Assembly (NCBI GenBank): GCA_965197905.1
Contig: CBDAOB010000005.1
Coordinates: 800,524 to 864,523, forward strand
From: Candidatus Latescibacterota bacterium
Lineage (GTDB): Bacteria; Latescibacterota; UBA2968; UBA8231
Length of the DNA stretch: 64,000 nucleotides
Direction: 5' to 3'
Shown in pieces: positions 714-55,152 of this stretch. The first letter of the stretch is position 1; each line of letters begins with the position of its first letter. A model generated the notes under the pieces. That model had not been told where the DNA came from. It ran no database searches and saw only the letters and a list, made by a program, of their open reading frames with translations. The position numbers were made by a program, and so were the translations under genes.

Positions 714-2507
714 GTGTCTAATCCAACGACACAGTCGAAGGTGTCCGATATGAAGGGTCACTACAGTGCAGCTTATCAGCGCATCGAAGAGCTGATAGCC
801 TCGGAGAGATGCGCGATTCTCGACGGCGGCGTCACCACGGAGCTGCAGCACGTCGGACCGAAAGAACACCGCGTCAGCGACAAGGGTCTCTGGGGCACCG
901 GGGTGCTCTACCGCGAACCGTATGCTGCCCTCGAGGTGCATAAACGCTACGTCGCTGCCGGATGCGATATCATCTCGACCATTACCTGGGCGATTATGGA
1001 CGCCCAGGAGATGGAGACGCAACGCATGGTGGAACATTCCGAACTACGCCATTGGATGGACGTAGCGCGACTGGGGATCATGCTGGCACGCCAGGCGGTG
1101 GACGAAGGGGGGAGAAGTGGGGAGTGTGCGGTGGGTTTCAGTCTCAACGGCGACATCGTCGATCCACAGCGTCTGCACAGAATTCAGCTTCTGGCGCGGG
1201 TGTTTAAGGAGGATCCGCCGGATTTGATCCTGCTTGAGACGATGTCGCTGGTCCGCGAAGATCTGACCGCGCCGGCTGTGGAAATCATGTTGGAAACAGG
1301 TCTGCCCGTGTGGCTCAGTTTTCGCCGCTGCCGGCACGGGGTGTGCGGGATCCATGGCCAACACTGGGGCGGGCCGGAAGGAGACCTGTTCGGGCGCCAG
1401 GCAAGGCAATTCGAAGAAATGGGGGTCGGCGCTCTGTTGATCAACTGCCTGCCAATAGACCATGTGCCAGGAATGATATCCTGGCTGCGTGATTTTACGG
1501 AGATGCCCCTTGGAGCATACCCCAATCTTGGGCGCTATCTGGATCCGGGGTGGAAGTTCGACGACGAGGTGGGCCCGGAGGAGTATGCAAACCTGGCGTT
1601 GCAGTGGCGCGGGGAGGGCGCCCAGATCGTGGGTGGATGCTGCGGCGTGACCCCCGAACATATGGCTGTCGTGGGCACCAGGCTCGCCTCGACCAAACCG
1701 GGAAACCGAAACATCGCTGCTGCCCATCCTCTCGCCGGTCCTGCGGCCGCTTCCCAACATCTCGAATCGCCGCCGCTCACGCTCGAACCCTGGATCGATG
1801 AAAAGAGCAGGGTGCTGTACCCGCTCCCCCTTCCTGAGATCGTTTGTGACCCAGGAGTTTTTCCACCAACCCAGGGCAGTTTCCTAATGTGGAAGTACCT
1901 GTGGCAATCTGGAGCAACCACAGGCAAACGGTGTTTGGACGTCGGTTGCGGAACTGGAATCCTCAGTGTCCAATTGGCCTTGAACGGTGCCCAACACGTA
2001 GATGCGATTGACATTCAACCTCAAGCCGTCGCCAATATGCTGACAAACGCCTTTCGCAACGGCGTGGCCGAACGCATCAGTGGCAAGGTGGCCGATCTCT
2101 ACTCCTACATTCCGGAGGAGCGCTACGAGGTTGTCGTGGCGAGTCTTTACCAGATGCCGGTGGATCCCATGGGGGAAACGACCAGCCACCGGCCGGTGGA
2201 TTTTTGGGGTCGAAATCTGCTGGACCACCTGATATCGCTCCTGCCGGATATGCTGGAGGAGGACGGGGTGGCGTATGTGATGCAGATTTCAGTGTTGGGC
2301 CAACTGCGAACCGTTGAGTTATTGGAGCGCAGCGGATTCGGGTGCAAGGTGATCGATTTCAGCCTGTTTCACTTCGGACCCGTGTTCCAGGAAAACATCG
2401 AACAGATTCGGCGCGTCGAGGAACTTTCAGATGCGTATCACCTGAGTTTCGGGGAAGATGAGGTGATGGTTATGTACTTGCTCGAAATCAGAGGTCGCAA
2501 GAATTAG
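714..2507 (+). CDS. Fusion protein: homocysteine S-methyltransferase domain plus class I SAM-dependent methyltransferase domain
   Basis: 597-aa ORF starting at GTG 714 (alternative ATG 750). The N-terminal half has ILDGGVTTELQ, LLINCLP and VGGCCGVTPEHM, the Cys pattern of the Zn/Hcy-binding methyltransferase fold. The C-terminal half has CLDVGCGTGILSVQLALNGAQHVDAIDI (SAM motif I) in a small-methyltransferase layout, with SLYQMP where HemK-type enzymes have NPPY. Confidence 0.8.
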   Translation: MSNPTTQSKVSDMKGHYSAAYQRIEELIASERCAILDGGVTTELQHVGPKEHRVSDKGLWGTGVLYREPYAALEVHKRYVAAGCDIISTITWAIMDAQEMETQRMVEHSELRHWMDVARLGIMLARQAVDEGGRSGECAVGFSLNGDIVDPQRLHRIQLLARVFKEDPPDLILLETMSLVREDLTAPAVEIMLETGLPVWLSFRRCRHGVCGIHGQHWGGPEGDLFGRQARQFEEMGVGALLINCLPIDHVPGMISWLRDFTEMPLGAYPNLGRYLDPGWKFDDEVGPEEYANLALQWRGEGAQIVGGCCGVTPEHMAVVGTRLASTKPGNRNIAAAHPLAGPAAASQHLESPPLTLEPWIDEKSRVLYPLPLPEIVCDPGVFPPTQGSFLMWKYLWQSGATTGKRCLDVGCGTGILSVQLALNGAQHVDAIDIQPQAVANMLTNAFRNGVAERISGKVADLYSYIPEERYEVVVASLYQMPVDPMGETTSHRPVDFWGRNLLDHLISLLPDMLEEDGVAYVMQISVLGQLRTVELLERSGFGCKVIDFSLFHFGPVFQENIEQIRRVEELSDAYHLSFGEDEVMVMYLLEIRGRKN

Positions 2508-2687
2508 CCCAGACTCTATTTGCCGAGATCTTGTCTCGAACCAGGCGCTTACCCTATTTTTCGATGAGAACACGGAGGCTAGCGGAGTTCAATCTAAACC
2601 CCATGGGGAATCGGCTGAGGGGATTGCTTTCGCCATCTGACCGCGAGACCGGTCAGTCGCGCCCCGGATCCTAGAAAGGTGGTACAA

Positions 2688-3530
2688 ATGGAAAACGGAC
2701 ATCTACCGAGCACCAATGCCGACGGTGTGCCGATCGTTCCGATGACGGCGGCACAAAAATATCTTTTCGACTTGAAGGGGTGGATCTGCTTGCCGGCCCT
2801 CCTGACTACTGAGGAGCTTGAGCCGATTCTGGAGCACCAGTGGAAGTTCCTCAAGGAACCGGAGTCATTACCTCCGGAAGAGAGAAACGCTGTCGGCGGT
2901 CCGTCACAGATCCTCCTGGATCATCCCGTGATTGTGGGCATGCTCAATGAGGTTCTCTCCTACCAGCCCTTGGCCGACGAGAACTGCTACGGTTTTCGCT
3001 TCGAGCGTACGCGCACCGACCGCCGCACGTGCGATCGCGACTACTTCGAAGCCCACGGGGGCGCGGGTTATTTCAACTTCTGTGGCAACTCACACCTCTA
3101 TCAGATGCTGCCCAACAAGATCCACGCAGGCCTGACCAGAGTCGTCTGGGAGCTGAACGAAGTGCGGTCCGGCGACGGTACCCATCTGATCTCCGGCAGC
3201 CACAAGACCGCCTATGAGCGCGCGGACGAGATCTGCGGACGAGACAGCGATCTGTGGGAGACCTACGCCTGTCCACCGGGGTCGGTCATGATCTTCACCG
3301 AGGCGATCTGCCACACAGGGGTGAGGTGGGAAAATCAGGAGTGGGACCGCCTCAGTCTTTTTCACCTTTACAACACGGTCAACTCGCGCTGGGGTGCGCA
3401 CTCGGTTCCCCCGGAGGTAATCGCAACCATGCCGGAAAAGCGCCAGAGTCTCTTCCGCCCCGTCTACGTCGCCCGTGGCCCCGGGAATCGGGACAACCTG
3501 AAGTACGATGAGGCGACCTACGGCGTCTGA
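2688..3530 (+). CDS. PhyH-like Fe(II)/2OG oxygenase with an atypical H-x-G metal motif
   Basis: ATG 2688 lies 5 nt after AAAGGTGG; the ORF track starts at GTG 2679. PhyH layout: KGWICLPALLTTEELE near the N-terminus, SGDGTHLISGSHK (the PGSH-like strand) and the distal TEAICHTG. At the position where paralogues carry WH-x-D, this protein has EAHGGAG (His codon 3054-3056). Confidence 0.7.
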   Translation: MENGHLPSTNADGVPIVPMTAAQKYLFDLKGWICLPALLTTEELEPILEHQWKFLKEPESLPPEERNAVGGPSQILLDHPVIVGMLNEVLSYQPLADENCYGFRFERTRTDRRTCDRDYFEAHGGAGYFNFCGNSHLYQMLPNKIHAGLTRVVWELNEVRSGDGTHLISGSHKTAYERADEICGRDSDLWETYACPPGSVMIFTEAICHTGVRWENQEWDRLSLFHLYNTVNSRWGAHSVPPEVIATMPEKRQSLFRPVYVARGPGNRDNLKYDEATYGV

Positions 3531-4948
3531 TGCACCGGGAGCCAGGGGGTATTGTGGTTCCACTCCTCCAGGCGGCGGCGTGATGCCTCGGCCAGGTCGG
3601 ACTGCTGTGCGCTCCGGGCCAGGTTGTTCTGCTCGTACGGATCGGCGCGTAGATCGAAGAAGCAATAGCGATCATCGGCGATGGTCTGCCGGTCTTCGTC
3701 AAGCTGCACGCCGTAGAGGTGAGTCGGCGTGCGCAAACCGATCCACCATGTTTTACTCTTCTGTGCTCTGTCGGTCTCGATGAACGCCGCGTCGTCTTCG
3801 AGCACGTCACAGCTTCCGGTGATTATCGGTGCCAGGTTCCTTCCCTGCGCGCTTGGGGGCACCTCCCCGCCACACACTTCCAGCAACGTGGGCATCACGT
3901 CGATCATCTGGGCGACCTGGCCACTGTTTACCCGCGGCGCCCAGCGTCCCGGAGCGTGGAAGATCAAAGGGATGCGGATGGCCTCCTCGATGAGTTGGCT
4001 CTTGTTGAACAGGTGGTGGCTGCCCAGGTTGTCGCCGTGATCGGCTAGAAACACCACAATGGTGTCGTCGGCCAGTCCATGTCTCTGGAGGGCGGCTAAG
4101 AGCCGGCCCATCATGTCGTCGACCCAGGTGGTCAGACCATAGTAGAGAGCAGTCAGGTGCCGCAGGTCGAACCCTGCGGGCGGAGTGGTCGTGTGCGGCA
4201 GTTTCTCCTGGTAGTAGAGAAAGTCCCAGCAATAGATCTTGAACCAGTGCTCGTCGTAGGCCAGCTCGCCGTCCACATACACATTGGGTCTGAGGGGCAC
4301 TTCGTCGGGAGCGTAGATATTGAGGTAGTGTGCGGGCGCGTCCATCAGCGGCATGTGGGGTGGCGATATGCTGTAGAACAGGAAGAATGGTCGCTCCGTG
4401 CGCGCGCCCAGGTAGCTATCCACCCGCTCCGCCTCGAACTCCACGCTGAAGCCCTCCACTACCTCGCCCATGCCCGTGTTCTCGATGAAGGTCTGGCCCG
4501 TGTGGCGGTGGTGAACCCGCGGGAACAGGCTGTAGTCGAAACCGAGCAGGTGCGGTGCTGGCTGGATGTGCCACTTGCCGATCAGCGCGGTATCGTACCC
4601 CAGGTTCCTGAACTGCTCCGGCAGGGTGGGATCTACGAGCTGGTTCCGTTCCTGGAAGGGATACTCGTCCCGGAGGGGATCCGCGGGTGCTGCGTCCTTT
4701 CGGGTGCCATGGCGCGGGCTGCCCATACAGGTGCGGCTGTACTGACCGGAAATCAGGCACGAACGCGCCGGCGTACACACCGGATTGTTGGTGACGGCGT
4801 GCTCGAAACGCACGCCCTCCTGTGCCAGGTGGTCGAGATTCGGCGTGCGGATGACCGGATTGCCGTAGCAACCCACCTCAAAGGCGCGCAGCTGATCGCA
4901 CATGCAGACGACGACATTGGGTCTGTTGCTCACTGCATACCTCCGCAC
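3518..4948 (-). CDS. Cys-type (formylglycine) sulfatase, no signal peptide
   Basis: 476 aa. NVVVCMCDQLR...PVCTPARSCLISGQY contains the C-x-P-x-R sulfatase signature. The N-terminus MRRYAVSNRPNVVV runs straight into the catalytic core. It overlaps the convergent gene 2688-3530 by 13 nt and the upstream lipoyl-protein gene by 19 nt. Confidence 0.9.
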   Translation of the reverse strand: MRRYAVSNRPNVVVCMCDQLRAFEVGCYGNPVIRTPNLDHLAQEGVRFEHAVTNNPVCTPARSCLISGQYSRTCMGSPRHGTRKDAAPADPLRDEYPFQERNQLVDPTLPEQFRNLGYDTALIGKWHIQPAPHLLGFDYSLFPRVHHRHTGQTFIENTGMGEVVEGFSVEFEAERVDSYLGARTERPFFLFYSISPPHMPLMDAPAHYLNIYAPDEVPLRPNVYVDGELAYDEHWFKIYCWDFLYYQEKLPHTTTPPAGFDLRHLTALYYGLTTWVDDMMGRLLAALQRHGLADDTIVVFLADHGDNLGSHHLFNKSQLIEEAIRIPLIFHAPGRWAPRVNSGQVAQMIDVMPTLLEVCGGEVPPSAQGRNLAPIITGSCDVLEDDAAFIETDRAQKSKTWWIGLRTPTHLYGVQLDEDRQTIADDRYCFFDLRADPYEQNNLARSAQQSDLAEASRRRLEEWNHNTPWLPVHQTP

Positions 4949-5442
4949 GCAGCGCGCACCTCGTCTTCGGTGATTCTGCGGGCACCGCTCGAATCGCAGA
5001 GCTTCCGCCAGTCGACTCCGAGCTCCTCCGCCAGTCGGCGTGCCCGGGGACTGATTCTGTATCTTGATGTTTTAGGCCGCGCGGTAGCCGCTGGCTGCGG
5101 ATGTTCCTGTTCCGTCGCAGGCTCGACCCCAGGGACTGAGATCGGTTTCGGGTCAGGCGCGGAACTCGTCGCCGGCACCGCTGCGGGCGGCGACTCGCCT
5201 TCGGCCAGCAGATAGCCGAGAAGCGTACCGACGGCAACGGTCGCGCCCTCACCGGGAACACCGTCGGGGATGTGCAGAATGCCTTCGTCGAGCGATTCGA
5301 CCTGACTGAGGGCCTTGTCGCTCTCGACCGTAAAGAGAATCTCTCCCAGTCCGACGCGGTCGCCGTGTTTGACGAGCCACTCCACGAGGGTGCCCTCTTC
5401 CATGGTCCAGCCGAGACGGGGCATCGCGATTTCCACAGCCAT
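4930..5442 (-). CDS. Lipoyl-domain plus E3/E1-binding (PSBD) protein; E2 lacking the acyltransferase catalytic domain
   Basis: 170 aa. MAVEIAMPRLGWTMEEGTLVEW...TVESDKALSQVES is a lipoyl-lysine motif. It is followed by an Ala/Pro linker and ISPRARRLAEELGVDWRKL..SGARRITEDEV (PSBD). The ORF stops right after this domain. Confidence 0.85.
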   Translation of the reverse strand: MAVEIAMPRLGWTMEEGTLVEWLVKHGDRVGLGEILFTVESDKALSQVESLDEGILHIPDGVPGEGATVAVGTLLGYLLAEGESPPAAVPATSSAPDPKPISVPGVEPATEQEHPQPAATARPKTSRYRISPRARRLAEELGVDWRKLCDSSGARRITEDEVRAACGGMQ

Positions 5443-5456
5443 GAAGATTGCCCGCG

Positions 5457-6437
5457 CTATTCCTCAGCGAGGTGGCGGACGGCCTGCGCGATCTGTTCGG
5501 CCGACGGTACCACAGCACTCTCGAGTGGTGGGCTGTAGGGTGTCGGGGTGTGTACGCCGTTCAGCCGGCGCACCGGCGCATCCAGAGCGTCGAACCCCGT
5601 CTCCATCACCCGGGCAGCGATCTCGGAACCGATGCCGCATGGACCGAAAGCCTCGTCGACGACGAGCAATCGACCCGTCTTGTGCAGCGATGTCAGTATG
5701 GTATCCATGTCCAGTGGCGCGAGACACCTGGGATCGACGACCTCGACAGAGATGCCCTCATCGGCTAGCTGGTCGCATACGCCCAGCGTCTTCGGCACCA
5801 TGGGACCAAGGGCGACAACGGTTAGGTCAGCGCCTTCGCGACTGATCGCAGCCTGACCCAGCGCGATCTCGTACGCCTCCTCCGGCACGTCGCCACGACT
5901 GTTCAGCAGCGACTTGTGCTCCAGGAAGAGGACCGGATCGTCGCAGCTCAGGGCGGTGGCCATGAGCCCCTTGGCATCGTATGGGGTGGCCGGCAGCACG
6001 ACGCGGAAGCCGGGGACGTTCACAAACAGCGGGTAATAGCTGCCCGAGTGGTGCGTAGCGGCACCGCCGCCGACCCCGATGCAGCCGCGCAGCACGACGG
6101 GCATCTTGAGTCTGCCGCTGGACATATACTGGATCTTGGCGATCTGGTTCACCAGTTCGCCGACGGAGTCCAGCACGAAGTCGATGAACATGAAGTCGAC
6201 GACCGGTCGGGTGCCCGTCATGGCGGCACCGGTGCAGATGCCGACGAAGCCGCGCTCGCAGATCGGCGTGTCTCGCAGACGTCTGGCTCCGTGGCGCTCA
6301 AACAGGCCCGTCGTCGTTTTGAAGTTGCCGCCGCGCACGCCGATGCCCTCACCGAGCACGAAAATCGTCGGATCACGCTCCATCGCCGCGGTGAGCGCTT
6401 CGCGGGCCGCCTCGGTATAGGTGATTTCTCTGGTCAT
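5457..6437 (-). CDS. 2-oxoacid (pyruvate/acetoin-type) dehydrogenase E1 beta subunit
   Basis: MTREITYTEAAREAL...FVLGEGIG..GG.FKTT.GL...RLRDTPICE is the transketolase-like pyrimidine-binding module. The preferred start is ATG 6437, which overlaps the E1 alpha stop in an ATGA. Confidence 0.9.
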   Translation of the reverse strand: MTREITYTEAAREALTAAMERDPTIFVLGEGIGVRGGNFKTTTGLFERHGARRLRDTPICERGFVGICTGAAMTGTRPVVDFMFIDFVLDSVGELVNQIAKIQYMSSGRLKMPVVLRGCIGVGGGAATHHSGSYYPLFVNVPGFRVVLPATPYDAKGLMATALSCDDPVLFLEHKSLLNSRGDVPEEAYEIALGQAAISREGADLTVVALGPMVPKTLGVCDQLADEGISVEVVDPRCLAPLDMDTILTSLHKTGRLLVVDEAFGPCGIGSEIAARVMETGFDALDAPVRRLNGVHTPTPYSPPLESAVVPSAEQIAQAVRHLAEE

Positions 6438-7375
6438 TGGGAATCGTCGCTGTAGATGTGAGCGCTCACGGATTCCGGCGATGGCCATGGGCTGTCGGTG
6501 GCGAACTGCACGGCCTCGGCAATCTCCTCCGCCACCTCCCGATCGACGGCCTGAAGGGTGTCGGCGCCGACGCCTTCGTCTGCGAGTCTGCGCGCCAGGG
6601 CCTCAATGGGATCCCTGGCCTTCCAGGCGTCGATCTCTTCCTGGGTTCGGTAACCGCCATCGCCCATGCCCTCCGCGTGAGGGCGGGTGCGATAGGTGCG
6701 GCACTCGAGGAGGGTGGGCCCATCACCTCCGCGGGCGCGCGCCGCAGCTTCACCGGCCGCTTCGAATACCGCCAGAGCATCGTTGCCGTCCACTGCAACG
6801 GCCTCGATCCCGTAACCGCGCGCTCGAGCGGCGACGTCGGTGTTGCGGGCGGCGTAGTTGAAAGCCACTTCAGTGGCATACATGTTGTTCTCGCACACAA
6901 ACAGCACGGGCAATTCCCAGATGGCAGCCAGATTGAGTCCCTCGTGAAATGCGCCGTTGCCGACGCCGCCGTCACCGAAAAAAGCGACCCCGACGCGATC
7001 GCTTTCCAGCAGCTGAAACGAGTAGCCGGCGCCGGTGGCCTGCAGGATGCTGGGACCGACGATACCGCTCGTGCCCATCATGCCGATCTCGGGCGCGAAG
7101 AGGTGCATGCTGCCGCCGCGGCCAGCGGAACAGCCGGTTGCCCGCCCGAAGAGCTCGGCAATGAGCTGTCGCGGAGGAAGGCCTTTGGCCAGAGCGTGAC
7201 CGTGACCGCGATGCGTGCTGAACACGGCGTCGTCATCACGCAGATGGGCACAGACCCCGGCGGCGACGGCCTCCTGTCCGACGTAGGTGTGACAGGCGCC
7301 GGTGATCAAGCCCGCCTGATAGGACCGTGCCAGCTGCTCTTCACAGCGCCGGATCCGCACCATGGTGCGATACAT
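6434..7375 (-). CDS. 2-oxoacid dehydrogenase E1 alpha subunit (TPP-binding)
   Basis: 313 aa. Motifs: YRTMVRIRRCEE, HTYVGQEAVAAG, GRGGSMH, and FFGDGGVGNGAFHEGLNLAAIWELPVLFVCENNMYA (TPP motif). The equally long antisense ORF 6437-7408(+) has no motifs. Confidence 0.9.
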   Translation of the reverse strand: MYRTMVRIRRCEEQLARSYQAGLITGACHTYVGQEAVAAGVCAHLRDDDAVFSTHRGHGHALAKGLPPRQLIAELFGRATGCSAGRGGSMHLFAPEIGMMGTSGIVGPSILQATGAGYSFQLLESDRVGVAFFGDGGVGNGAFHEGLNLAAIWELPVLFVCENNMYATEVAFNYAARNTDVAARARGYGIEAVAVDGNDALAVFEAAGEAAARARGGDGPTLLECRTYRTRPHAEGMGDGGYRTQEEIDAWKARDPIEALARRLADEGVGADTLQAVDREVAEEIAEAVQFATDSPWPSPESVSAHIYSDDSQ

Positions 7376-7414
7376 GTCGAGGAGTGCATCTGTTGGATAT
7401 GGTCATGAGTGCAA

Positions 7415-8230
7415 TCAGCCTGTGATGCCCGGGCCACCGGGATAGGAAGCGCCGGCATTCATGGCGAGGTTGCCGCCGTCCACGGGCAGCAGTACACCCG
7501 TCACCCAGGCGGAGGCATCGGAGGCCAGGAAGATGGCCACACCCCTGACGTCGTCGGGTTGACCGAGCCTGCCGGTTTGGAATGCCCCGCAGCCACTGCT
7601 CTTCCATACGGGGTTCACGCTTCATGCGCTCCTGCACGTCGCGGCGTGCGCGTCAACGCCATCCTGCTCGCTCAGGTGGTGAACCCGCTTCTTCGACCAT
7701 TCGGTGCTGAGCTCGCGCGTCATCTGGGCAACAGATCCCATCGCCATGCTGTAAGCCGTGTGACCGCGTCCGAGAGCGGTGAGACTGGCGAGCGAGCCGA
7801 TGTTGATAATACTTCCGCGCCCGGCGGCAAGCATGCGTTTGCCGGCCTCCTGGCAGCAGAGGAAGCGTCCGATCGCCAGACCCTGAAACACCTGGAGCAA
7901 CTCCTCGGTCGATATCTCCTCCGGCGGTTTGAGAATGGCCTCGCCGGCGACGTTGGCGCAGATGTCCAGGCGGCCGAACTCGTTGTCGATGTGCTCGAAC
8001 ATCGGGCGGATCTGGTCCGGGTCCGAAACGTCGCAGCGCAGCGGCATTGCCCGGCGACCCAGCGCCTCGACCACGGCGGCGGTCTGTTGCGCCCCATCCT
8101 CGTTCAGGTCGGCGAGCACGAGATCGGCACCGACTTCGGCAAAGGCGAGAGACATGGCTCGACCGACGCCACGCGCCGCCCCCGAAACCAGAGCTACGCG
8201 GCCAGTTAGATCGAACAGCGCGTGTGACAT
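7415..8230 (-). pseudogene. Short-chain dehydrogenase/reductase interrupted by a single in-frame TGA (probable pseudogene)
   Basis: ORFs 7622-8230 and 7415-7618 are in the same frame, separated only by TGA (7622-7624) and one Ser codon. Together they give 272 codons. The N-terminus has TGRVALVSGAARGVG (Rossmann fold) and the C-terminus has GRLGQPDDVRGVAIFLASDASAWVTGVLLPVDGG. The catalytic YxxxK reads YSMAM (Lys to Met, codon 7739-7741). The IRVN..PG segment is degenerate (RVHHLSEQDG). Confidence 0.6.
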
Positions 8231-23142: not shown

Positions 23143-26133
23143 TCAGAGCGGGCGTCCGAACTCAGTGAAACCGACCACCGTCCGCACATAGAAGCTCCAT
23201 AAATCTACGTTTCGATCCTTCAGAGAGATCTGATCAAAACTCACCCTGTCTTTGTTGAATCCGACGATCGTCACCAGCTCGTAGCCGAAATAGTTCGAGC
23301 GATTTCTGAGGGAACCAAAGAACGTGCGCTGCTCGAAGCTGAGTCTTCTGTCTGTATGGTTCTTGCGCCGGTATGGCACCGGACCTAGACCCTGAATGCC
23401 AGCTGCCAGCGACGTCCGGCGCAAAAGTGGATACTCCAGCCGCAGAATCGGTACGGAGCGATATTCTGACTGCAGTCGCACGTCGCGCTCCCGGTCGATC
23501 GAGCGCAGGATCATGAACTTGTACTGGGGCGTCAAGCCCAAGGAGCCCCAATACACGGGATACTGAACTCGGCTCACCCAGGTCCAGAAATCCAACCGTC
23601 GATCGCGCTGGAAGTTGCCGTTGTAGAGCCGTCCACCTTGCTGCCAGTTGAAACGCAGGCGCAGCTTCTGCACGACCTCCAGCTTCGACCAGGGCCTGAG
23701 ACGGCCTTCAAGATAGGTGTCGCTCACGAAGCTGTCGCGGTAGAACAACAGATCCGGTATGAAGTCGACGAAGGTGAAAACCGGAAGGCCGAAACCGGAG
23801 TCGGTCGCTGGCGCGTTGAAGATCCCGCGCTGACGGTAGGCCCCTTGTCGAGTCCCGACGTCTGGATCGAAGGTCATGATCTCGTCGGGGATATCATCCT
23901 GTACCCGGCGGATGCCGCTCTCGAAAGAGAGCCGCTGCAGCCGCCCGCGTTGCTCGCGGCGATAGCTCAGCAGCCCGTAGGTGGAGCGGTTGCGGCCGCC
24001 CCCGGCTATCTCTGCCACCTCGTAGCGACCCACACCTGCGGACCAGCGCGGCGTCAGCTGCCACTGGCCGAACAGATGCCAGCCGCGCTGGTCGTAGTCG
24101 TACGGATAGTCGACATCGCCGTCGTCTTCGCGCGGATCGGGCTCGTTGTTGTTGTTGCGATCGAGCCCATACACGTAGCTGTTGGGCTCCACGTCGAACA
24201 TCAGAAACGGCTCGTCGTAGTCGGGGACTCGATTGAGATTGCGATTGATGTCGGGGCCCCCGTCATTGTCCTCGTCCTGATTCAGCCAGACGCCGTCGAG
24301 GTCGGTGCCGACCTGGTCCGGACTGACCGCCACCGGATTGCCGAACTGGCGGTCGGGATCGCGGTCGCCATCGTCGTTGTCTTCCACCAGCTGCCAGTAC
24401 ATGCTACTGTTGATCACGGCCGAAAACATGCCCAACCAGAGAGGGGTTTCGTTGTGCAGGTAGGAGCGCATCTCCGTCTGAAACCCTGGATCTATGGAGA
24501 ACAGCTCACCGCCCACCAGCCCGCGCTGAAACCGATGCACGGCGTTGAGGAAGTAGGCCGCACCTCGATGGTTGAAACGCGGTGCGTCATCAAACGCCGG
24601 TTGCCCACCCACTCGGGCAGGGTAGCGGGAATACAGACTGGAGCGCGCATACTCGCCGTGGATCTCCAGGCTCGACAGCACCAGTTGCACGTCGGCACTG
24701 TAGACGAACTGGCCGGTGTTCTCCCCCACCGAGAACCGCACCCGTCTCAGGTTCGACAAGTCCCTTACGTTCCCCTCGGCGCGCAGGACGACGTGATAGT
24801 AGGTGGCGTTGAATCTGTCAGCGTGAGCGGTAGCAATCTGATTCACGGCGTACAACATCGCCACATCCACGTGGTAGTCGTTGCCCAGCAATGCATCGAC
24901 CTCCACCGACTTGACGGAGGGCTCGGCTGAGAGATCGAATACGTATACCAGTTGGTTTTCGCCGTCGGCACGGAGCTCGCGTTCGGGCGCGTGCAGCTCG
25001 TAGGTGGTTTCCAGACCTGCTGCATTGGCCATTTTGCTTACATCGACGCCGTCAGCATGATCGATTCGCGTCAGGTAGTCGGCATAGAGCGGAAGATCGC
25101 GTTCCCTATAGAAGGTCTCGTTGAAAAAGCCCGTGCCCCCGGTAGAGGCCGTCAACCGGTTGTATGGTAGAGGGCTGAATTTCCCGGTGACGACCGAAAC
25201 AAAACCGACCTGCACCGGAGGATCGGCCGTATGGCCGATTACCCGAGGTATCAGGTCCCGGCGCACTTCGCCATCGATCAACAGGTGCACGTCCCGCACT
25301 ACCGCACCGCCCGTGTCGTCGTCCGGCGAGTCGTCTGTAAAACGGACGAGAAGGTACTCCGTCATGGGCTGGTCCGGCTTCAATCGCCCCTTGAGGCTGT
25401 TGCCCGGCTGGGTGCTCTGGTATACGTGCTGGTTGACCCAGTTGAGCCCTATCTGAAGACGGCCCAGGTCCACCTGCGCCCGACTGCCCGAAAGCAAAGT
25501 GGAATCGTCGGCAAAATGGGTCTTTGTTTCAAAGGCGCTATTGAAGAGCCTGGCTCGGTCCTTGGGCCGCTCCTGCCTCGATGCCAGCCCTGTGATTTTC
25601 AAATAGGGTGTGGAAACATCCAGGCGCGCGCCGTTGTAATTCACCTTGGACAGCGTCAGCGGGGTGAAGCGGGCGATCAGGGCGTCGCCGACGATCATGT
25701 TGTATCCCCACCGTCCGTAACCGTCGCTGCCCGCCACCACGTAATCGAACGCGTTGGGCCAGGTACCCCCTGACTCATCGAGGCCGAATTCCTTGAAAAT
25801 GGCACTCCCATATTCCTGACCCAAGACGCGCGTCTCCTCCCATCGGTACAGATCGTACCCGGTCACCAGGTAGTTCCCCATGAAGTCGTAACGGGATTTC
25901 GGCGTGTCCACGTAGGGAAACATGTGGCCAGGGGAGTTGGTGATATTCTGGTGGGCGTAGTTGTGGTAAGCAGGCCGTGTCCAGCGCAGAAACGGACGCG
26001 CGGTGGTTACCTCCTCGAGGCGCTCAGACACGTCGGCGCCGGCGGTCTCTGAGATCGTCACGGCGAGGCAGACGATTCGGATCAGTCTACACGCACGGTC
26101 CCGGATGGGGGAAGACTTGGGCTGCGGACGCAA
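23143..26133 (-). CDS. Very large putative outer-membrane protein with an Asp-rich Ca-binding-like segment
   Basis: The ORF is open to 26505, but that start would overlap the divergent gene at 26396. TTG 26133 gives MRPQPKSSPIRDRACRLIRIVCLAVTISETAGA-DV, which is signal-peptide-like. The C-terminal third has alternating-hydrophobic strands ending ...YVRTVVGFTEFGRPL. Start uncertain (26133-26352). Confidence 0.7.
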   Translation of the reverse strand: MRPQPKSSPIRDRACRLIRIVCLAVTISETAGADVSERLEEVTTARPFLRWTRPAYHNYAHQNITNSPGHMFPYVDTPKSRYDFMGNYLVTGYDLYRWEETRVLGQEYGSAIFKEFGLDESGGTWPNAFDYVVAGSDGYGRWGYNMIVGDALIARFTPLTLSKVNYNGARLDVSTPYLKITGLASRQERPKDRARLFNSAFETKTHFADDSTLLSGSRAQVDLGRLQIGLNWVNQHVYQSTQPGNSLKGRLKPDQPMTEYLLVRFTDDSPDDDTGGAVVRDVHLLIDGEVRRDLIPRVIGHTADPPVQVGFVSVVTGKFSPLPYNRLTASTGGTGFFNETFYRERDLPLYADYLTRIDHADGVDVSKMANAAGLETTYELHAPERELRADGENQLVYVFDLSAEPSVKSVEVDALLGNDYHVDVAMLYAVNQIATAHADRFNATYYHVVLRAEGNVRDLSNLRRVRFSVGENTGQFVYSADVQLVLSSLEIHGEYARSSLYSRYPARVGGQPAFDDAPRFNHRGAAYFLNAVHRFQRGLVGGELFSIDPGFQTEMRSYLHNETPLWLGMFSAVINSSMYWQLVEDNDDGDRDPDRQFGNPVAVSPDQVGTDLDGVWLNQDEDNDGGPDINRNLNRVPDYDEPFLMFDVEPNSYVYGLDRNNNNEPDPREDDGDVDYPYDYDQRGWHLFGQWQLTPRWSAGVGRYEVAEIAGGGRNRSTYGLLSYRREQRGRLQRLSFESGIRRVQDDIPDEIMTFDPDVGTRQGAYRQRGIFNAPATDSGFGLPVFTFVDFIPDLLFYRDSFVSDTYLEGRLRPWSKLEVVQKLRLRFNWQQGGRLYNGNFQRDRRLDFWTWVSRVQYPVYWGSLGLTPQYKFMILRSIDRERDVRLQSEYRSVPILRLEYPLLRRTSLAAGIQGLGPVPYRRKNHTDRRLSFEQRTFFGSLRNRSNYFGYELVTIVGFNKDRVSFDQISLKDRNVDLWSFYVRTVVGFTEFGRPL

Positions 26134-26346
26134 CCGCCAGTTTCGTGGAAAAGCCACTGAATCCGTCTGAGTTTTTTGTGCCAAAGCCAATTGTCTCGGG
26201 TATTTGTACCCCAACCGACTCGAGGCAGACATCCACGACCTTTTCGACAGAGAGTGAAATTCCAACAGAATAACGCTAACGCTTGAGATCAGAGAAAGGA
26301 AAGATCGTCGAGGTAACCGGCGTGGGCGGCAATTGCCTGGGTTTGG

Positions 26347-26375
26347 TTGCATGGCACACCCCTGATGAGTAGAAT
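26347..26375 (+). promoter_or_regulatory. Candidate sigma-70-type promoter for the 26396 operon
   Basis: TTGCAT (26347-52), a 17-nt spacer, then TAGAAT (26370-75), 20 nt upstream of ATG 26396 with GAGAGGAG in between. This is a pattern match only. Confidence 0.3.
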
Positions 26376-26395
26376 AGTTCGGTCGAGAGGAGCCC

Positions 26396-27238
26396 ATGAA
26401 CGTCGCCCAGATCGTCATGCACATGCAGATCGATGGGTTTTGCGTCATCCCGGGGGTCATCCCGAAGGATGAGGTGTCGCACGTGCTCGAAAGCATCGAG
26501 CGCACGACGAAGATGTTGGCCCCTGAGCGCTTCCCCGAAGATGGCGAGGAACCCAGTCAGTGGACCGATCCCGACTTTGTTAAGAGCGGAAAAGAAGCGC
26601 GGCCGCGAGGTTTACTCAACCACGACCAGTCGTTTGTCCCCTACCTTTGCGAACCGCGCCTGGCAGGCGCGCTCGAGGCGCTATTGGGTCCGCATTATCT
26701 GGCCCAGGACTGCGGTGTGGCGGTCAGTATCGGCCTCAGGCGGCGCGGGTTGCATTGTGACTGGCCTTACAATCAAAACGGGGATATCTCCGGCAAACTC
26801 CTCAAGCAACTCCCTGAGATACCTGTCCTCATCAACACCCTGTGGATGCTGACGCCCTTTTCCGAAGAAAATGGTGCTACGGCCGTGGTCCCCGGCAGCC
26901 ATCGATACGGAAAACCCTCCGGCGCCGCTGTTGACCGATTGGCGCGCTACCCGACGGAGTTGCAGGCAACAGGCGAGGCTGGCAGCGTGCTCATGCTCGA
27001 TGGCCGCACCTGGCACAGCATCATGCCTAACAGCTCCGGCAGGCGGCGTTCCTGCCTGATATTGCGCTGGATCCCGTGGTGGTTCAATATGGGGCTCTGC
27101 TGTGAGGGATCGCTCGAGCGACAGCATTGGATTGACCTCGGCTACACTATGCGGACGGAGCCACTCGTCAAGCCCGATGTCTACGACCGGCTACCATCCA
27201 ATGTAAAGCAGTTTTACCGTCACTGGGTCGAGTCATAG
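26396..27238 (+). CDS. PhyH-family Fe(II)/2OG dioxygenase
   Basis: 280 aa. Motifs DGFCVIPGVIPKDEV, LHCDWPY (H-x-D), ENGATAVVPGSH and WHSIMPNSSGRRR. Confidence 0.85.
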   Translation: MNVAQIVMHMQIDGFCVIPGVIPKDEVSHVLESIERTTKMLAPERFPEDGEEPSQWTDPDFVKSGKEARPRGLLNHDQSFVPYLCEPRLAGALEALLGPHYLAQDCGVAVSIGLRRRGLHCDWPYNQNGDISGKLLKQLPEIPVLINTLWMLTPFSEENGATAVVPGSHRYGKPSGAAVDRLARYPTELQATGEAGSVLMLDGRTWHSIMPNSSGRRRSCLILRWIPWWFNMGLCCEGSLERQHWIDLGYTMRTEPLVKPDVYDRLPSNVKQFYRHWVES

Positions 27239-29169: not shown

Positions 29170-31170
29170 CTAAAGGGTTTGGAACGGTACGGGAATCTTG
29201 TCCCCGTGCCAAGGGAAGGCGTAGCTGGGGGCGTTGACAAAGCGTTTCAGGCCGGCCTCCACACGTATGGACGTGGACGGCGGAAGCTCAATGGCGAAGT
29301 ACTTCTCATTCACCGGCGCAACGGTCTCGCCGTCGCGGCCTTCCTCGTGGTAGCGGACCTGCGTGAACCGATGCTCGCCAAAAGCCCCCGCCTGCACGAT
29401 GAGATTGCGCGTCTCGCTTCGATGGGTGTTGACGAGCTGAAAGCCCACGACCTCGGGCCCCAGCTCATCCACGAGAGCGGCCACGTCCCCAGGTAGTCCG
29501 GGACGAGCGCGATCCTGGTCGAAGTAGCGCACCGTGGCGCGCAGCAGTCCGCCGGTATAGATGGTCTGGGGTGCCCCCATCGTGACCTGGGTCAGCCCCT
29601 TGGTCACGACGGGCTGGTAGGGGAACTCGTTAGTCAGAATCATCTCGTGGGGGGTGCGCTCATCGAGCCGAATCCGCTCGTAGATCTCCAGGGCGTGCTG
29701 ATATTCGGCGGTCAGGATCTTCTCGGGCCAGTCGGGATTCTTGCCATCGTAATACTGGAACCGGGCGAACTCGGTCTGCCCTCCGTTCTTCTCGCCCAGA
29801 ACGGATCCGACCTCGTTCCAATCCCGCTCCACCTCGCCGTCGCGGACATGGGTGATCAACTCGTAATCCTCCCGGGACATGGAAGCGTGGTAGAGGTGCA
29901 TCATCTCCTGCCCGTTCATGGGGCCGGGAGGCGAGTAAGACCATTCTCCCATCGGAATGCCATCGTCTACGTAGGGTTCGATCGGCTCTCCCATCTCCCA
30001 GCCATCCAGGCCATACCGATAGGGCACAACGAACTGACCGTCTTCACGGCGGAACCCCTGATCGATTCGGACCTTGAGCTGCGAGCGCAGAAAATCCAGG
30101 TAGCTGCTGTCGCCGGTGAGCAGTTGGGCACACTCGACGCCGATGTTGATTCCGTTGTACATGATGCTGCAGCCTTTGAAGGAGGACCAGCCATACTGTC
30201 CTCCCCACCAGATACCCTCGCGTCCGCCGCCGATGACCCCGTTTGCATCGACGTTGTCCGGAACGATGCCGCCATTCAACTTAGTACGCTCCATCCAGGC
30301 CTCGGTGTAGTCCAAAACCCATTGTTTGTATTTCTCGTCCCCCGTGTAGAGATAGGCGTTGGTCACGAGGGCGGCCGCAGCCAGACTGCTGGGGGTGTCG
30401 CATTGCATGACCATCTTGTTGAACAGGTCAAGGATCTGCCGCCTGCGCTCGGGTTTCTCGAACCAGCGGGCCTCAAGGTGTTTGATGTGGGGGTAGAGAC
30501 TCGCCCGCACGCCGTAGTAGTTGCCCGGGTCTCCCAGTCGGCGGCCACCCAGGAGCATCACGTTGGCCAAGATCGCATCCCCCTCCAGCTTGGGTCCCTG
30601 ACTGGAATGGAAGGGGGAGCGCAGGATCCGATGTTCGGGGTCCCAGTTGGGCGCTTCGGGATCTTCGCCGATGAACATGGCGGCGAAGCGTTTGGCTCGG
30701 CGCACGTTCTCTGAGATGGTCGGATCGCCCAGACCCATGTGATAGAACGCCGTACCTCCTTCCCCGAGATGGTGCCATTCCGCCCCCGCATCCAAGTTCC
30801 AGAACTCGTTGTGGATGGAGGGCATGTAGACCCTGATGAAATCTTCGTGCAGGTTGGGACGATGTTGAATACTCTCATCGCTGATGCGGGTGGCGGCGTT
30901 CCACTGCTGAAGATGGAGGTCCAGCAGATCGTCGGCAGCGCCGATGGCGTAGAACAGACCGTAGTTGTAGAACTGCTCGTAGAGGTCGTCGAGATCCTCG
31001 GCGAGAAGGGTCCCGCCCCCGCGCTCGGTGTACTTCCTGGTGAACAGGCGGGCGGAGCGCTCCATCAGCTCGATCAGGTTCCGCTCGATGAGCGCCCACG
31101 CCGGCGCCGCCGAGACCTTCGTTGCTTTGATCTCAATCATTCCTGGAATTTCGACGGGTTTAGCGTACAT
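29170..31170 (-). CDS. Large conserved hypothetical protein (about 666 aa), no signal peptide
   Basis: Longest ORF in the region; the antisense ORFs are shorter. ATG 31170 is preceded by GGAGGA at 10 nt. I recognise no catalytic motif. The helical, Trp/Gly-rich core (IWWGGQYGWSSF) is compatible with an alpha/alpha-toroid carbohydrate enzyme, but that is a guess. Confidence 0.7.
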   Translation of the reverse strand: MYAKPVEIPGMIEIKATKVSAAPAWALIERNLIELMERSARLFTRKYTERGGGTLLAEDLDDLYEQFYNYGLFYAIGAADDLLDLHLQQWNAATRISDESIQHRPNLHEDFIRVYMPSIHNEFWNLDAGAEWHHLGEGGTAFYHMGLGDPTISENVRRAKRFAAMFIGEDPEAPNWDPEHRILRSPFHSSQGPKLEGDAILANVMLLGGRRLGDPGNYYGVRASLYPHIKHLEARWFEKPERRRQILDLFNKMVMQCDTPSSLAAAALVTNAYLYTGDEKYKQWVLDYTEAWMERTKLNGGIVPDNVDANGVIGGGREGIWWGGQYGWSSFKGCSIMYNGINIGVECAQLLTGDSSYLDFLRSQLKVRIDQGFRREDGQFVVPYRYGLDGWEMGEPIEPYVDDGIPMGEWSYSPPGPMNGQEMMHLYHASMSREDYELITHVRDGEVERDWNEVGSVLGEKNGGQTEFARFQYYDGKNPDWPEKILTAEYQHALEIYERIRLDERTPHEMILTNEFPYQPVVTKGLTQVTMGAPQTIYTGGLLRATVRYFDQDRARPGLPGDVAALVDELGPEVVGFQLVNTHRSETRNLIVQAGAFGEHRFTQVRYHEEGRDGETVAPVNEKYFAIELPPSTSIRVEAGLKRFVNAPSYAFPWHGDKIPVPFQTL

Positions 31171-31288
31171 GAGTTGGGTCTCCTCCGGAAACACACGGCG
31201 TCGTGAGCCCAGACAACATGAGTCCTGCACTGGGTCTTGGTGACGCCGTGAATCGCGAATAGCGGATAAGTCTCATTGTGGTCGTTTT

Positions 31289-33194: not shown

Positions 33195-35159
33195 TCAATA
33201 TACCCGAATGTGGTTGTGTTTCACGCCTGTGATCGAATCGACCAACAACCAGAAGCCGGCTGCCACGAACTGGCCCAGAATAATCCCCATGAAAAACGGC
33301 TTCGTGCGTTCGTACAGCGCCGGCCCCCCGTAGTTTAATACCAGGACTTTGATCAGCCAGGCGACCAGTGTTGACATCCAGATGGCGTTCAAGATCCAGG
33401 AGGAGCTTATGGCGAAACCGACCGGATGGAAAGGCCACCAGGCGAAGGTGTGGCGGGCGATCATCAATACGCCCATAACTGCAGCGCCCACCCCGGTCCA
33501 TATCCAGCCGCCCATGTGCGCTTCAGTTGGACTGTTGAGCTTGAGCTCTACAAACCGAGCGGCGGTCTGCGCGTAGACGAAGTAGTAGCGGGTATTGAGG
33601 TTGAGTCCACCGTGCTTGTAGGCCAGGTGGATTTGAAACCAGGTGGCGGCCACCATGGCAATCACCGAAGCGGCGCCGATGGCGAAGACGAGCCTCCTTC
33701 GATTGCGAGTGATCTCTGATCCCATGCGCAGGGCGTTAGCCATCGGTGCGGTGATGAAGGTCATGAACCCACTGGCCCAGATCAGGGTAAGGCCTGTCGC
33801 CACGACCCCCGTCATGCCGAGGGCTGTAGTGCCGAGGGCGGAGGTGACGAAGTTGGCCGGGGCCATCGCGGGCGTAATGGTGGGCACCCCGGTCTCGGCG
33901 ATGACCCGCGCCAATCCGATCATTACGACCAGGGTGGCGAAGATGAATATAGGAGCGATCCAGGCCGGCATGCCGGAGTGCCACAACCAGAAAAAAACGA
34001 AGGTCGCACCACCCAGGAAGCAGAGCACTGCAGCACGGTACGGCATCACCTCCTGCGAATCGTCCACCGATGGGTCTCCGTTCCATGCCTTGCGCAACAC
34101 CTCCATGAGGTGGGACCGCGCCGTCCACAAGCCGAAAACCACCATCACGATCAGCGCCCCCATCATCTGGTGACCGAAGATCGGTCCTCCGATAGGCGTC
34201 GTGGCGTGCCCCGGACCCAGGTTCTGCGTGAGCCCGATGCCCAGCAGGACGAAGATCCCTCCCTGCAGCACACGCACGAGATAGAAGAACCACATGCTGA
34301 AGGCGACGCCTGTGTTGATGAAGTAGGCGAACCCCAACATGAGGAAATTGATGCGGAACATGATCTCGATCTGGTCGTGAAAGAACCTGTATTGTACCTG
34401 CCCCATGAAAGCGGGGATCCAGGCGAAGTAGTTGTGCAGAATGTTGGTGCTGTTCATCAGGAAGCAGAAGATGAAACCTGCCCACATGACCGGATTCTTG
34501 AAGAAGGGTTTGATGATCGCGTCGGGCCGGCCGTTGTCCTGCAGCATCGCCAGCGGCACCTGAGCCAGGGGGAAGGCCAGGCGCTCGCGCTCAACCCACT
34601 GGCGCCGCAGGATCACCAAGGCGCTGAGCAGCATGAGGTGGTAGGCGACAAAGAAGAGAAGCCAGCGCAGCAGGACCGGGAGCCATAGATGCCACGGAAT
34701 TCGGTCCGGGTCTCCTCCGTAGTAGAGCTCGCGGATCGCGTCCGCATCACTGAGCACCAACCATTCCGCCAGTACGGGATGAATCAGCTCGCCCCAGTTG
34801 TTTTCGGGCGAGGCGTAGAAGATGATCCCAGTGATCCCCACCACCAGCTTCTGCGATACGCCCCGGGTGGGAATGGCGGTGGCGATCGCCATCATGATGA
34901 AGATCACTGCCAGCTCACCGGGACGCAGGTGCCAGTTGCGCCTGAGCAGCGTCAGCATCACCTGTACGGTAAAAAGCACGACGAAAAACAGAATGAAAGC
35001 TGCCGGCGTACAGGAGCTGAGGCCGATGCGCGTCGCCCGCATCACGTTCAATGTATAAGGCAGGATTAACGCGATGCTGAGCGCCGAGAGCGAGCCGATA
35101 ACGAGGCAGCGAGCGCTGATCTCCCAGCGATCGGCAAGTTGAGACGGGTGGGTCATCAT
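33195..35159 (-). CDS. Polytopic membrane protein, paralogue B of the uncharacterised family
   Basis: 654 aa with about 14 or more hydrophobic spans. Family motifs: RIGLSSCTPAAFILFF, FYASPENNWGELIHP, ERERLAFPLAQVPLAML, WWPFHPVGFAI and YGGPALYERTKPFFMGI. Confidence 0.9.
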   Translation of the reverse strand: MMTHPSQLADRWEISARCLVIGSLSALSIALILPYTLNVMRATRIGLSSCTPAAFILFFVVLFTVQVMLTLLRRNWHLRPGELAVIFIMMAIATAIPTRGVSQKLVVGITGIIFYASPENNWGELIHPVLAEWLVLSDADAIRELYYGGDPDRIPWHLWLPVLLRWLLFFVAYHLMLLSALVILRRQWVERERLAFPLAQVPLAMLQDNGRPDAIIKPFFKNPVMWAGFIFCFLMNSTNILHNYFAWIPAFMGQVQYRFFHDQIEIMFRINFLMLGFAYFINTGVAFSMWFFYLVRVLQGGIFVLLGIGLTQNLGPGHATTPIGGPIFGHQMMGALIVMVVFGLWTARSHLMEVLRKAWNGDPSVDDSQEVMPYRAAVLCFLGGATFVFFWLWHSGMPAWIAPIFIFATLVVMIGLARVIAETGVPTITPAMAPANFVTSALGTTALGMTGVVATGLTLIWASGFMTFITAPMANALRMGSEITRNRRRLVFAIGAASVIAMVAATWFQIHLAYKHGGLNLNTRYYFVYAQTAARFVELKLNSPTEAHMGGWIWTGVGAAVMGVLMIARHTFAWWPFHPVGFAISSSWILNAIWMSTLVAWLIKVLVLNYGGPALYERTKPFFMGIILGQFVAAGFWLLVDSITGVKHNHIRVY

Positions 35160-35293: not shown

Positions 35294-36772
35294 TCAGTGG
35301 GTGTTGACTCCGAAGGTGAGATTGTCCCAGCGATGCGTCAGCAGATGGCGGAGTAGAGCTTCCTGTGCCGTTTCTGTTCCGATATTGCGCAAGGCATGGA
35401 CGGCCTTGCCGCGAACGTAGCGGTTGCTGTCCTCGAGAGCTGCCTCCAGCTGAGGCGTGGCTTCCTCGGCACGTGAACCCAAGCGGGCTAGCGCCATGAC
35501 AGCCCTCATGCGAACCCTCTCTTCGGAGTGACCAAGCGTTCTAGCCAGCGCTCCCGGGACATCAGTTGCCGGCGGATCGATCCATCCTAGGGCTTCGGCG
35601 GCGTTTGCCGCCACTTCATCCGTCTGGTCTTCCAGACACCTGACCAGCTCCGGGAGGGCGGGCCGGGCTTGGTTCCCCATGTCGGCCAGCGCCTCGGCCG
35701 CACCGGCACGGACAGATGAGTCGCTATGACCCAGAGCTTCTGTGAGAGCGGGTACGGCTGATTTACCGATGGCGCTAAGCGCGTAGGTAAAACCCCTGCG
35801 AACACCCTCAGTGCTTGCCAGGGCATCGATGAGGGAAGGCACCGCCGACTCCCCGAGGGCAGCCAGCTCGTAGATGCTTTCGAGCCAGACCGGTTCGGAT
35901 GCGCCTACCTGTTCGTTGGTCTCCACTCGGGTCCACATCGCTCGATTAGGTTCACCAAGGGCCGAATTTTCCGAAGCGGTTTTGACGAGTTTGTCGATCG
36001 AAGCAGCAGCAGAATCCCCGTTCTCTGCGAATTTCTCACCGCTTTTGCCGCAATGCCAATCCCACACGCGCTTCTTCAAATTTGCATGGGGGACATCGGT
36101 GCCTGGCTGCCAGTCTTGATTCTTGCAGTCCCAGCTGGGACTCAGCGGCTCGCTCATGCGCGCGAAGATGAAAACCACCATAGCCCGTTTCTTCTCGGTC
36201 TTGTTGGAGGTGGCCGCGTGAAAGAGATCGTAGTTCGCCAGCACGATGGTTCCCGCATCCCCGCAGATCGGGAATTCCCGACCGAGGTCAACGCCATCCA
36301 AGGAATTGTAGTACTGACTACCCGGAAGGATGGTAGTCGCGCCCATCTCCGCGGTCGTATCCTGGGGGTAGTAGAGGCACCAGGCCCACCGGGTGCGATG
36401 TCTGCGACGGTGGCTCATGTCATCCTTGTGCAGCTTTCCGCCGAGGCGGCCGCGTTTGGGATCCGTGTTGACCCCGCCTCTGGGTATGAAACCGTGCTGG
36501 CGAAAGTGGCAATGCCGATGCGGATACATGAAGTAGTCGGCACCCAGGACACTCTCGAAGAAGCCGGAGATCTGCGGCTCATCGAACAGGTGCTGGAACA
36601 GTGGGATCCGCGGCAGGAGGTTGTTGCCGGGGTTACCCTCGCTTTCGTAGACACTCTCGATTTCGTCGAAGATCTGCTTGTGGAACGCAGCGGGCAGGCC
36701 GGACTTGAACATGAGGTATCCATCAATGATAAACCTCTGCATCTGTTCGTCGGTAAGGAGTTTGCGATCCAT
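35294..36772 (-). CDS. PhyH-like dioxygenase fused to C-terminal HEAT (PBS-lyase-type) repeats, copy 2
   Basis: Preferred start ATG 36772 (MDRKLLTDEQMQRFIIDGYLM), matching the paralogue's start. PhyH core motifs: LHKDD, MGATTILPGSQ and LFHAATSNKTEKKR. The C-terminal roughly 200 aa carry repeated ...AVPxLxxALxxxDxxVRxxAAxALxxxG... units. Confidence 0.85.
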   Translation of the reverse strand: MDRKLLTDEQMQRFIIDGYLMFKSGLPAAFHKQIFDEIESVYESEGNPGNNLLPRIPLFQHLFDEPQISGFFESVLGADYFMYPHRHCHFRQHGFIPRGGVNTDPKRGRLGGKLHKDDMSHRRRHRTRWAWCLYYPQDTTAEMGATTILPGSQYYNSLDGVDLGREFPICGDAGTIVLANYDLFHAATSNKTEKKRAMVVFIFARMSEPLSPSWDCKNQDWQPGTDVPHANLKKRVWDWHCGKSGEKFAENGDSAAASIDKLVKTASENSALGEPNRAMWTRVETNEQVGASEPVWLESIYELAALGESAVPSLIDALASTEGVRRGFTYALSAIGKSAVPALTEALGHSDSSVRAGAAEALADMGNQARPALPELVRCLEDQTDEVAANAAEALGWIDPPATDVPGALARTLGHSEERVRMRAVMALARLGSRAEEATPQLEAALEDSNRYVRGKAVHALRNIGTETAQEALLRHLLTHRWDNLTFGVNTH

Positions 36773-36810
36773 GTCAGCTGTTCCCAGGTCGGCGAACGAC
36801 GAAATACCGC

Positions 36811-48614: not shown

Positions 48615-49010
48615 CTATCCGACACCCCTCGGTCCGGCCGCGGTGTGCCCTGCGGTGGGGAACCAGATCAGGTCGACCAAGACGGAAGAGGCAACCCCGA
48701 CTATGTAACCGACCCCCATGCCGTAGAAAAACGGCTTGCCTGCCACGTAGGCGGCGACCCCGCCATAGCGTAGGAGGGTGGCTTTGACGCCCCAGACCAC
48801 CGCCAGATTAATCCAGTAGAGATCCAGCCAGAATGATTCCTGAAAAGCGAGACCGACCGGGTGCAAGGAGAACCAGTGGTAGCGACTGCGCAGGTAGGTC
48901 ATGCCCGCCGCTTGTAGCCATCCGAAGAGAAATACCCCGATCTTCTGCCAGTCCATAACTGTGCGGTTCTGGAGCATGTAGACCAAGGGGTCGAAGAAAC
49001 GGGCGGTCAT
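48615..49010 (-). CDS. C-terminal piece of membrane-protein paralogue D (split gene)
   Basis: 131 aa. MTARFFDPL...WFSLHPVGLAF...LLRYGGVAAYVAGKPFFYGMGVGYIVG aligns to the last roughly 130 aa of paralogues B and C (TAARFVE...WWPFHPVGFAI...LNYGGPALYERTKPFFMGIILGQFV). Its ATG overlaps the stop of 49007-50758 (ATGA). Confidence 0.75.
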   Translation of the reverse strand: MTARFFDPLVYMLQNRTVMDWQKIGVFLFGWLQAAGMTYLRSRYHWFSLHPVGLAFQESFWLDLYWINLAVVWGVKATLLRYGGVAAYVAGKPFFYGMGVGYIVGVASSVLVDLIWFPTAGHTAAGPRGVG

Positions 49011-55148: not shown

Positions 55149-55152
55149 GGCG

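Follow-up and report, generated by a model that had tools for sequence, protein, structure and literature searches.

In Fe(II)/2-oxoglutarate (2OG) halogenases, a small residue stands in place of the carboxylate otherwise located two positions past the proximal histidine: SyrB2 contains H-x-A, and WelO5 and BesD contain H-x-G. We know of no such halogenase with a compensating carboxylate supplied by the protein. HygX, the hygromycin B orthoester synthase of Streptomyces hygroscopicus, contains H-x-G and still has an acidic ligand. According to a 2026 review (PMC13374393), from which the assignment of the HygX ligands is taken here, its iron site is "H-X-G ... E-X3-H"; the acidic ligand is relocated, and the gap left behind is filled by Lys137. 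The inserts of HygX are flexible and its product is an orthoester, not a halide adduct (PMC13374393). In the same review, this triad is presented as a departure peculiar to HygX, and NvfE is described as a non-oxidative or inactive-type case on an oxygenase scaffold (PMC13374393). Aspartyl/asparaginyl beta-hydroxylase (AspH) also departs from the canonical H-x-D/E...H triad (PMC13168262).

Here these systems are compared with a protein encoded in the window, the whole stretch of 64,000 nucleotides that was analysed. The protein is most likely a new, uncharacterised representative of the permuted-triad enzymes of which HygX is the known type. The same H-x-G ... E-x3-H pattern distinguishes a large clade, likewise uncharacterised, that has 1286 representatives at 50% clustering. 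The gene and the sites discussed below are as follows.

2675–2682, +, Shine-Dalgarno-like sequence AAAGGTGG, 5 nt upstream of ATG 2688 (sequence read directly; homologue N-termini)
2688–3530, +, target ORF, 280-aa protein with the PhyH fold, similar to Fe(II)/2OG oxygenases and belonging to the HygX-type clade (H-x-G ... E-x3-H) (homology; AF2 fold)
3054–3062, +, H123-G124-G125, putative proximal metal-binding His, with Gly where canonical enzymes carry Asp/Glu (conservation; hhalign and MAFFT pairing with H-G-G of HygX)
3072–3128, +, residues 129–147, loop of pLDDT < 50 with conserved H136, Y138, Q139, and H146 (AF2 model; alignment)
3138–3140, +, R151 (AGA) in LTRVVWEL, aligned with Lys137 of HygX (invariant in close homologues; alignments)
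3195–3206, +, G170-S-H-K173, the "GSHK" strand of the PhyH family, common to HygX (alignments)
3300–3314, +, E205-A-I-C-H209 (E-x3-H, in FTEAICH), proposed relocated carboxylate and distal His (conservation; pairing with NEALMH of HygX)
3348–3350, +, R221 (CGC) in a D-R-L motif, 12 residues past the distal His, candidate Arg for binding the C5-carboxylate of 2-oxoglutarate (invariance; alignment to GDRLL of HygX)

The ORF starts with ATG at 2688, ends with the stop codon at 3528–3530, and contains 280 codons without interruption. Almost all of the best 120 homologues are 279–283 aa in length. The presence of AAAGGTGG before the ATG and this agreement in length indicate that the ORF is real. 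GTG at 2679 was considered as an alternative start codon, but it falls within the Shine-Dalgarno sequence, and both the N-termini of homologues and the Shine-Dalgarno spacing favour ATG 2688. GC3 of the gene is 0.75, similar to the other genes of the window. A scan of positions 2300–3800 for promoters and terminators found none.

The protein itself shows no match to Pfam or NCBIfam at E ≤ 10. Of 56 close homologues, 53 match PF05721 (PhyH), with the best E value of 2.2e-9. The protein is too divergent to be detected with Pfam or NCBIfam by itself. Its AF2 model (pLDDT 81.4, pTM 0.83) is a double-stranded beta-helix, and the best Foldseek matches of the model are SptF, FtmOx1, and HygX, together with OkaE and DhiD, with probability 1.0 and TM scores of 0.55–0.66. 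The initial annotation had called the product PhyH-like, and both the family matches and the model agree with it.

The initial annotation also assigned the proximal His to EAHGGAG with Gly two residues later. The codons, CAC at 3054–3056 for H123 followed by GGG and GGC for G124 and G125, and the pairing with H-G-G of HygX both lead to the same assignment. H-x-D/E, stated to be absent upstream, is not found anywhere in the 280 residues by a regex scan. The distal His is the histidine of CHTG, H209 (codon 3312–3314), and the strand SGDGTHLISGSHK corresponds to residues 161–173, both as first described. This strand ends with GSHK, which is not known to be a metal ligand in PhyH-type enzymes.

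In the 90%-clustered database, 595 homologues are detectable, and the best 120 of them are 57–96% identical to the target. In the MAFFT alignment of the query and these 120 sequences (n = 121), H123 is conserved in 120 sequences, and G124 and G125 are conserved in all 121. R151, E155, H172, K173, E205, H209, R221, R252, and R257 are likewise seen in 121/121. H136 is conserved in 119 and H146 in 115. There is no position in the alignment of the 121 sequences at which H-x-D/E is conserved.

An exhaustive profile search against 1.84 billion representatives of 50% clusters revealed 1286 proteins with E ≤ 1e-3; of these, 513 reach E ≤ 1e-10 and 94 reach E ≤ 1e-30. Among the best 150 of the 1286, essentially all sequences covering the site contain pH[GNAHCQ]G, F[TS]E-x3-H, and R221, and the exceptions resemble fragments or frameshifted gene calls. 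R151 and E155 are confined to the nearer part of this clade; further out, position 151 is occupied by Val. Positions 136 and 146 are variable (H/F/M/Y/W) in the wider clade, while H123 is nearly invariant there. H-x-G is kept both in close homologues and in the wider clade, and therefore it is a trait of the family, not the result of chance or of degeneration of one copy. Asp-bearing orthologues, which had been pointed out as a sign that this gene could be an inactive variant, are not what the alignments contain, and that reading fails.

The family is large, uncharacterised, and centred on Latescibacterota. Its members originate from metagenome-assembled genomes (MAGs) of Latescibacterota, Gemmatimonadota, Planctomycetota, Poribacteria, Handelsmanbacteria, and Spirochaetia. 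A genome frequently contains more than one copy, and in Latescibacterota the number is often two. Several Latescibacterota genomes contain two HygX-type copies located far apart on the chromosome: OZ244235.1 (loci L006 and L009), OZ242311.1 (L022 and L023), and CBDDPH010000002.1 (L013 and L019). The copies in OZ244235.1 share 95% and 82% identity with the query.

Based on a profile built from 56 family members, the best match in PDB is HygX (4XC9, 4XCA, 4XCB, and 4ZPI), with an E value of 6.2e-7 by hmmsearch. DhiD, SwnH2, AndA, EctD, TlxJ, and FtmOx1, all canonical PhyH-type enzymes, follow as much weaker matches. The single target sequence gives only noise and HygX at E about 1 by phmmer against PDB, and thus the family profile is required to reach HygX. 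The comparison of the family profile with the HygX sequence by hhalign gives a probability of 96.3% and an E value of 1.6e-9. The identity of HygX to the target is approximately 17–25%.

In the hhalign alignment, EA-H123-G-G of the target corresponds to YL-H-G-G of HygX, and FT-E205-AIC-H209 corresponds to LN-E-ALM-H. LT-R151-VVWEL is paired with YV-K137-ALVYL, and D-R221-L with D-R-L. An independent alignment by MAFFT L-INS-i, in which the query and HygX were combined with four close homologues and with 46 divergent full-length representatives, among them intermediates with L-x-L-HGG, reproduces all four of these pairings. The hmmsearch alignment agrees on E-x3-H, K137/R151, and D-R-L, but places HGG and its surroundings about 7 residues out of register. 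This offset is considered a local alignment error associated with a length difference of 9 residues; hhalign, MAFFT, and the intermediate sequences concur with one another.

HygX and the target thus share the PhyH-type double-stranded beta-helix, H-G-G, E-x3-H, a basic residue in the strand facing the Gly gap (K137 and R151, respectively), the GSHK strand, the Arg of D-R-L, and a variable segment following the proximal His. They also differ. The residue at the gap position is Arg in the target and Lys in HygX, and the connection before H123 is longer by 9 residues in the target. The context differs as well: the target does not lie in an aminoglycoside cluster, and belongs to a large family with paralogues in Latescibacterota, Gemmatimonadota, and Planctomycetota. 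No orthosomycin or aminoglycoside cluster is found at the target locus; the genes around the target encode a methyltransferase fusion, a sulfatase, E1 subunits of a 2-oxoacid dehydrogenase, and an ABC transporter. The substrate of the target certainly differs from that of HygX.

The window contains six other PhyH-domain genes, all of which are canonical H-x-D genes.

26396–27238, +, PhyH-domain gene
35294–36847, −, PhyH-domain gene
36811–38256, −, PhyH-domain gene
42391–43260, +, PhyH-domain gene
43285–44214, −, PhyH-domain gene
58100–58942, −, PhyH-domain gene

The target resembles canonical PhyH enzymes (PF05721: SptF, FtmOx1, AndA, DhiD, ectoine hydroxylase, and the six paralogues) in the fold, the GSH(K) strand, the distal His, and a later Arg. 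In contrast to the target, these enzymes have H-x-D, and they carry Gly, Ser, or another non-acidic residue at the position that precedes the distal His by four (distal-His-4). All six paralogues have H-x-D, and none of them has an acidic residue at distal-His-4. In the PDB alignments, the position of E205 is taken by Gly or Ser in DhiD, SwnH2, and AndA, which are enzymes with H-x-D. Among the PhyH genes of the window, the combination of H-x-G and E-x3-H is seen only in the target. Where H-x-D is present, distal-His-4 is non-acidic, and where H-x-G is present, Glu occupies that position; in these aligned sequences the two features replace each other, as relocation of the ligand predicts.

The genome is strongly enriched in the PhyH fold, with these six further genes within 64 kb. 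The ORFs at 35294–36847 (−) and 36811–38256 (−) are tandem paralogues with N-terminal PhyH and C-terminal HEAT repeats, an architecture that seemed unusual for an Fe/2OG oxygenase. There are also three large paralogous DUF6785 proteins at 33195–35159 (−), 44307–46277 (−), and 49007–50758 (−). Two of them contain DUF6784 as well, and two adjoin PhyH genes.

From these comparisons, the target is predicted to be a soluble Fe(II)/2OG-dependent oxygenase that adopts the PhyH fold and whose facial triad is permuted, with a probability of about 0.78. HygX shares H-x-G together with a relocated Glu, and the invariant E205-x3-H209 of the target aligns with it; we therefore consider it most likely that the triad is permuted yet complete, with its carboxylate relocated rather than lost. 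The initial annotation had read the Gly as loss of the carboxylate, either as in halogenases or as in the 2-His site of AspH. This part is not supported, given the alignment of the invariant E205 with the Glu in E-x3-H of HygX. In the AF2 model, a strand is interrupted between residues 204 and 208, and with such a break E205 and H209 could face the same site.

In the proposed mechanism, Fe(II) would be held by H123, E205, and H209, and E205 would stand in for the Asp/Glu two residues after the first His. R151 would fill the cavity at Gly125 near the metal, the part played by Lys137 in HygX. 2OG would chelate the iron and be anchored by R221; this candidate role of R221 is one that we presume from what is known of the PhyH family. 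The flexible loop 129–147, with its conserved H136, Y138, Q139, and H146, is probably a substrate lid, equivalent to the segment of variable length after H-G-G in HygX, and would close over the substrate. Activation of O2 and decarboxylation of 2OG would then generate Fe(IV)=O, which would abstract a hydrogen atom from the substrate. The outcome could be hydroxylation or oxidative C–O bond formation similar to that by HygX. We infer metal ligation by E205, dependence on 2OG, and the reaction from the motifs, their conservation, the homology to HygX, and the fold.

The invariance of H-x-G in the family might instead be taken as the mark of an Fe(II)/2OG halogenase or another anion-transferring enzyme, in which H-x-G leaves a site for chloride or bromide, as in WelO5 and BesD, and E205 is in the second sphere or hemilabile. 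The likeness to halogenases lies in the small residue, here G125, found in place of the carboxylate at the second position past the proximal His. The difference lies in the invariant Glu of the target, which is aligned to the relocated acidic ligand of HygX. Known halogenases are absent from the PDB sequence matches at E ≤ 10, both for the single sequence and for the profile, and from the top 50 Foldseek matches; no sequence relationship to solved halogenases was detected. The only relative that has been characterised, HygX, produces an orthoester. Neither NRPS, carrier-protein nor natural-product clusters are seen nearby, and several copies per genome over many environmental phyla fit catabolism better than halogenated natural products. 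A halogenase is thus very improbable. It can be speculated, with equally slight expectation, that E205 is hemilabile or in the second sphere, that H-x-G transiently opens a coordination position, and that R151 helps to hold an anion. If this were true, this large and environmentally widespread clade would be a source of Fe/2OG enzymes that act on free small molecules and either transfer anions (by halogenation or pseudohalogenation) or carry out other reactions than hydroxylation. A site of two His without a carboxylate that still hydroxylates, as in AspH, could be imagined based on the absence of H-x-D/E from the protein, and the departure from the canonical triad is common to the target and AspH (PMC13168262). 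AspH belongs to an unrelated subfamily and is truly without the carboxylate, whereas the target appears to keep one at E205, the position of the relocated carboxylate in HygX. Similarity to AspH is not seen: the target protein has no Pfam match, and AspH is absent from the PDB matches. This reading is as hard to sustain as that of a halogenase.

It is also conceivable that the proximal ligand is H136, or H146 in H146-x-G, both in the loop 129–147, and that H123 is structural. The strong conservation of both residues in the close family (119/121 and 115/121) is in favour of this assignment, and one canonical paralogue has a spacing similar to the 13 residues between H136 and the LTRVVWEL strand. 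However, it is the two loop positions that vary in the wider clade and H123 that stays nearly invariant; hhalign and MAFFT both pair H123 with H-G-G of HygX, and H136 and H146 sit in the loop of pLDDT < 50, off the beta-helix core. We regard a ligand from the loop as highly unlikely. A somewhat less remote alternative, improbable all the same, is that the protein is independent of 2OG or non-oxidative, such as an isomerase or an epimerase, or that it is an inactive pseudo-enzyme, as for NvfE. Such cases exist in the superfamily (PMC13374393). Against this, the candidate 2OG-binding R221 and the three proposed ligands are invariant, and the identity of about 60% kept across phyla argues against decay. 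The oxygenase with a permuted triad is therefore preferred over all of these readings.

The closest genomic locus is in a MAG of Candidatus Latescibacterota, where the orthologue is 95% identical and the locus is syntenic. The genes on both sides of the target in the window are as follows.

714–2507, +, 597-aa fusion of homocysteine S-methyltransferase (PF02574) and class I SAM-dependent methyltransferase, directly upstream of the target with a gap of 180 bp
3518–4948, −, sulfatase (PF00884 and SGSH_C), convergent with the target with an overlap of 13 bp (3518–3530)

The neighbours of 80 loci were clustered into families. No conserved operon partner is present in this set, and no neighbour family is seen in more than 14 of the 80 loci. 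Three gene orders recur in subgroups. One is aldo-keto reductase, Ldh_2 dehydrogenase, target, and SDR/epimerase; another is TPP enzyme, Zn-ADH, and target. In the remaining one, a divergently transcribed lactonase gene is located upstream, and a xylose-isomerase-like barrel and a HAD hydrolase are located downstream. These contexts do not resemble a natural-product cluster, and weakly hint at catabolism of small polar, carbohydrate-like molecules. Based on the neighbours in other genomes and the convergent sulfatase in the window, one tentative guess, and a doubtful one, is that the substrate of the target is a small polar molecule derived from carbohydrate.

Assuming that the permuted triad is correct, the unsupported halogenase call at this locus is replaced by a testable oxygenase model. 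In genome mining, the rule that H-x-G/A means a halogenase would yield false positives unless Glu at distal-His-4 is checked. The family might also serve as a natural set of enzymes for learning how relocation of the carboxylate alters the reactivity of the ferryl intermediate.

Several other features of the window were observed. The ORFs at 23143–26505 (−; 1120 aa) and 29170–31230 (−; 686 aa) are long and have no Pfam match at E ≤ 1e-5. Three consecutive ORFs of 545, 575, and 477 aa at 51787–56586 (+) likewise have no Pfam match at this threshold. Inspection of translations by eye in the region 4930–7375 (−) revealed an ORF of 170 aa with a lipoyl-attachment-like N-terminus and no catalytic E2 core. 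It adjoins E1-beta-like and E1-alpha-like ORFs of a 2-oxoacid/acetoin dehydrogenase. The SDR gene at 7400–8230 (−) is broken. Compared with the intact orthologue at locus L006 (10745–11741), a 55-bp segment at 7638–7692 is reversed, and in this reverse orientation the segment aligns with 92.7% identity. The reversal puts the coding piece GVRVNAILLAQVVNP on the + strand and gives rise to an in-frame TGA at 7622–7624. This could be either a small real inversion or an artefact of assembly.
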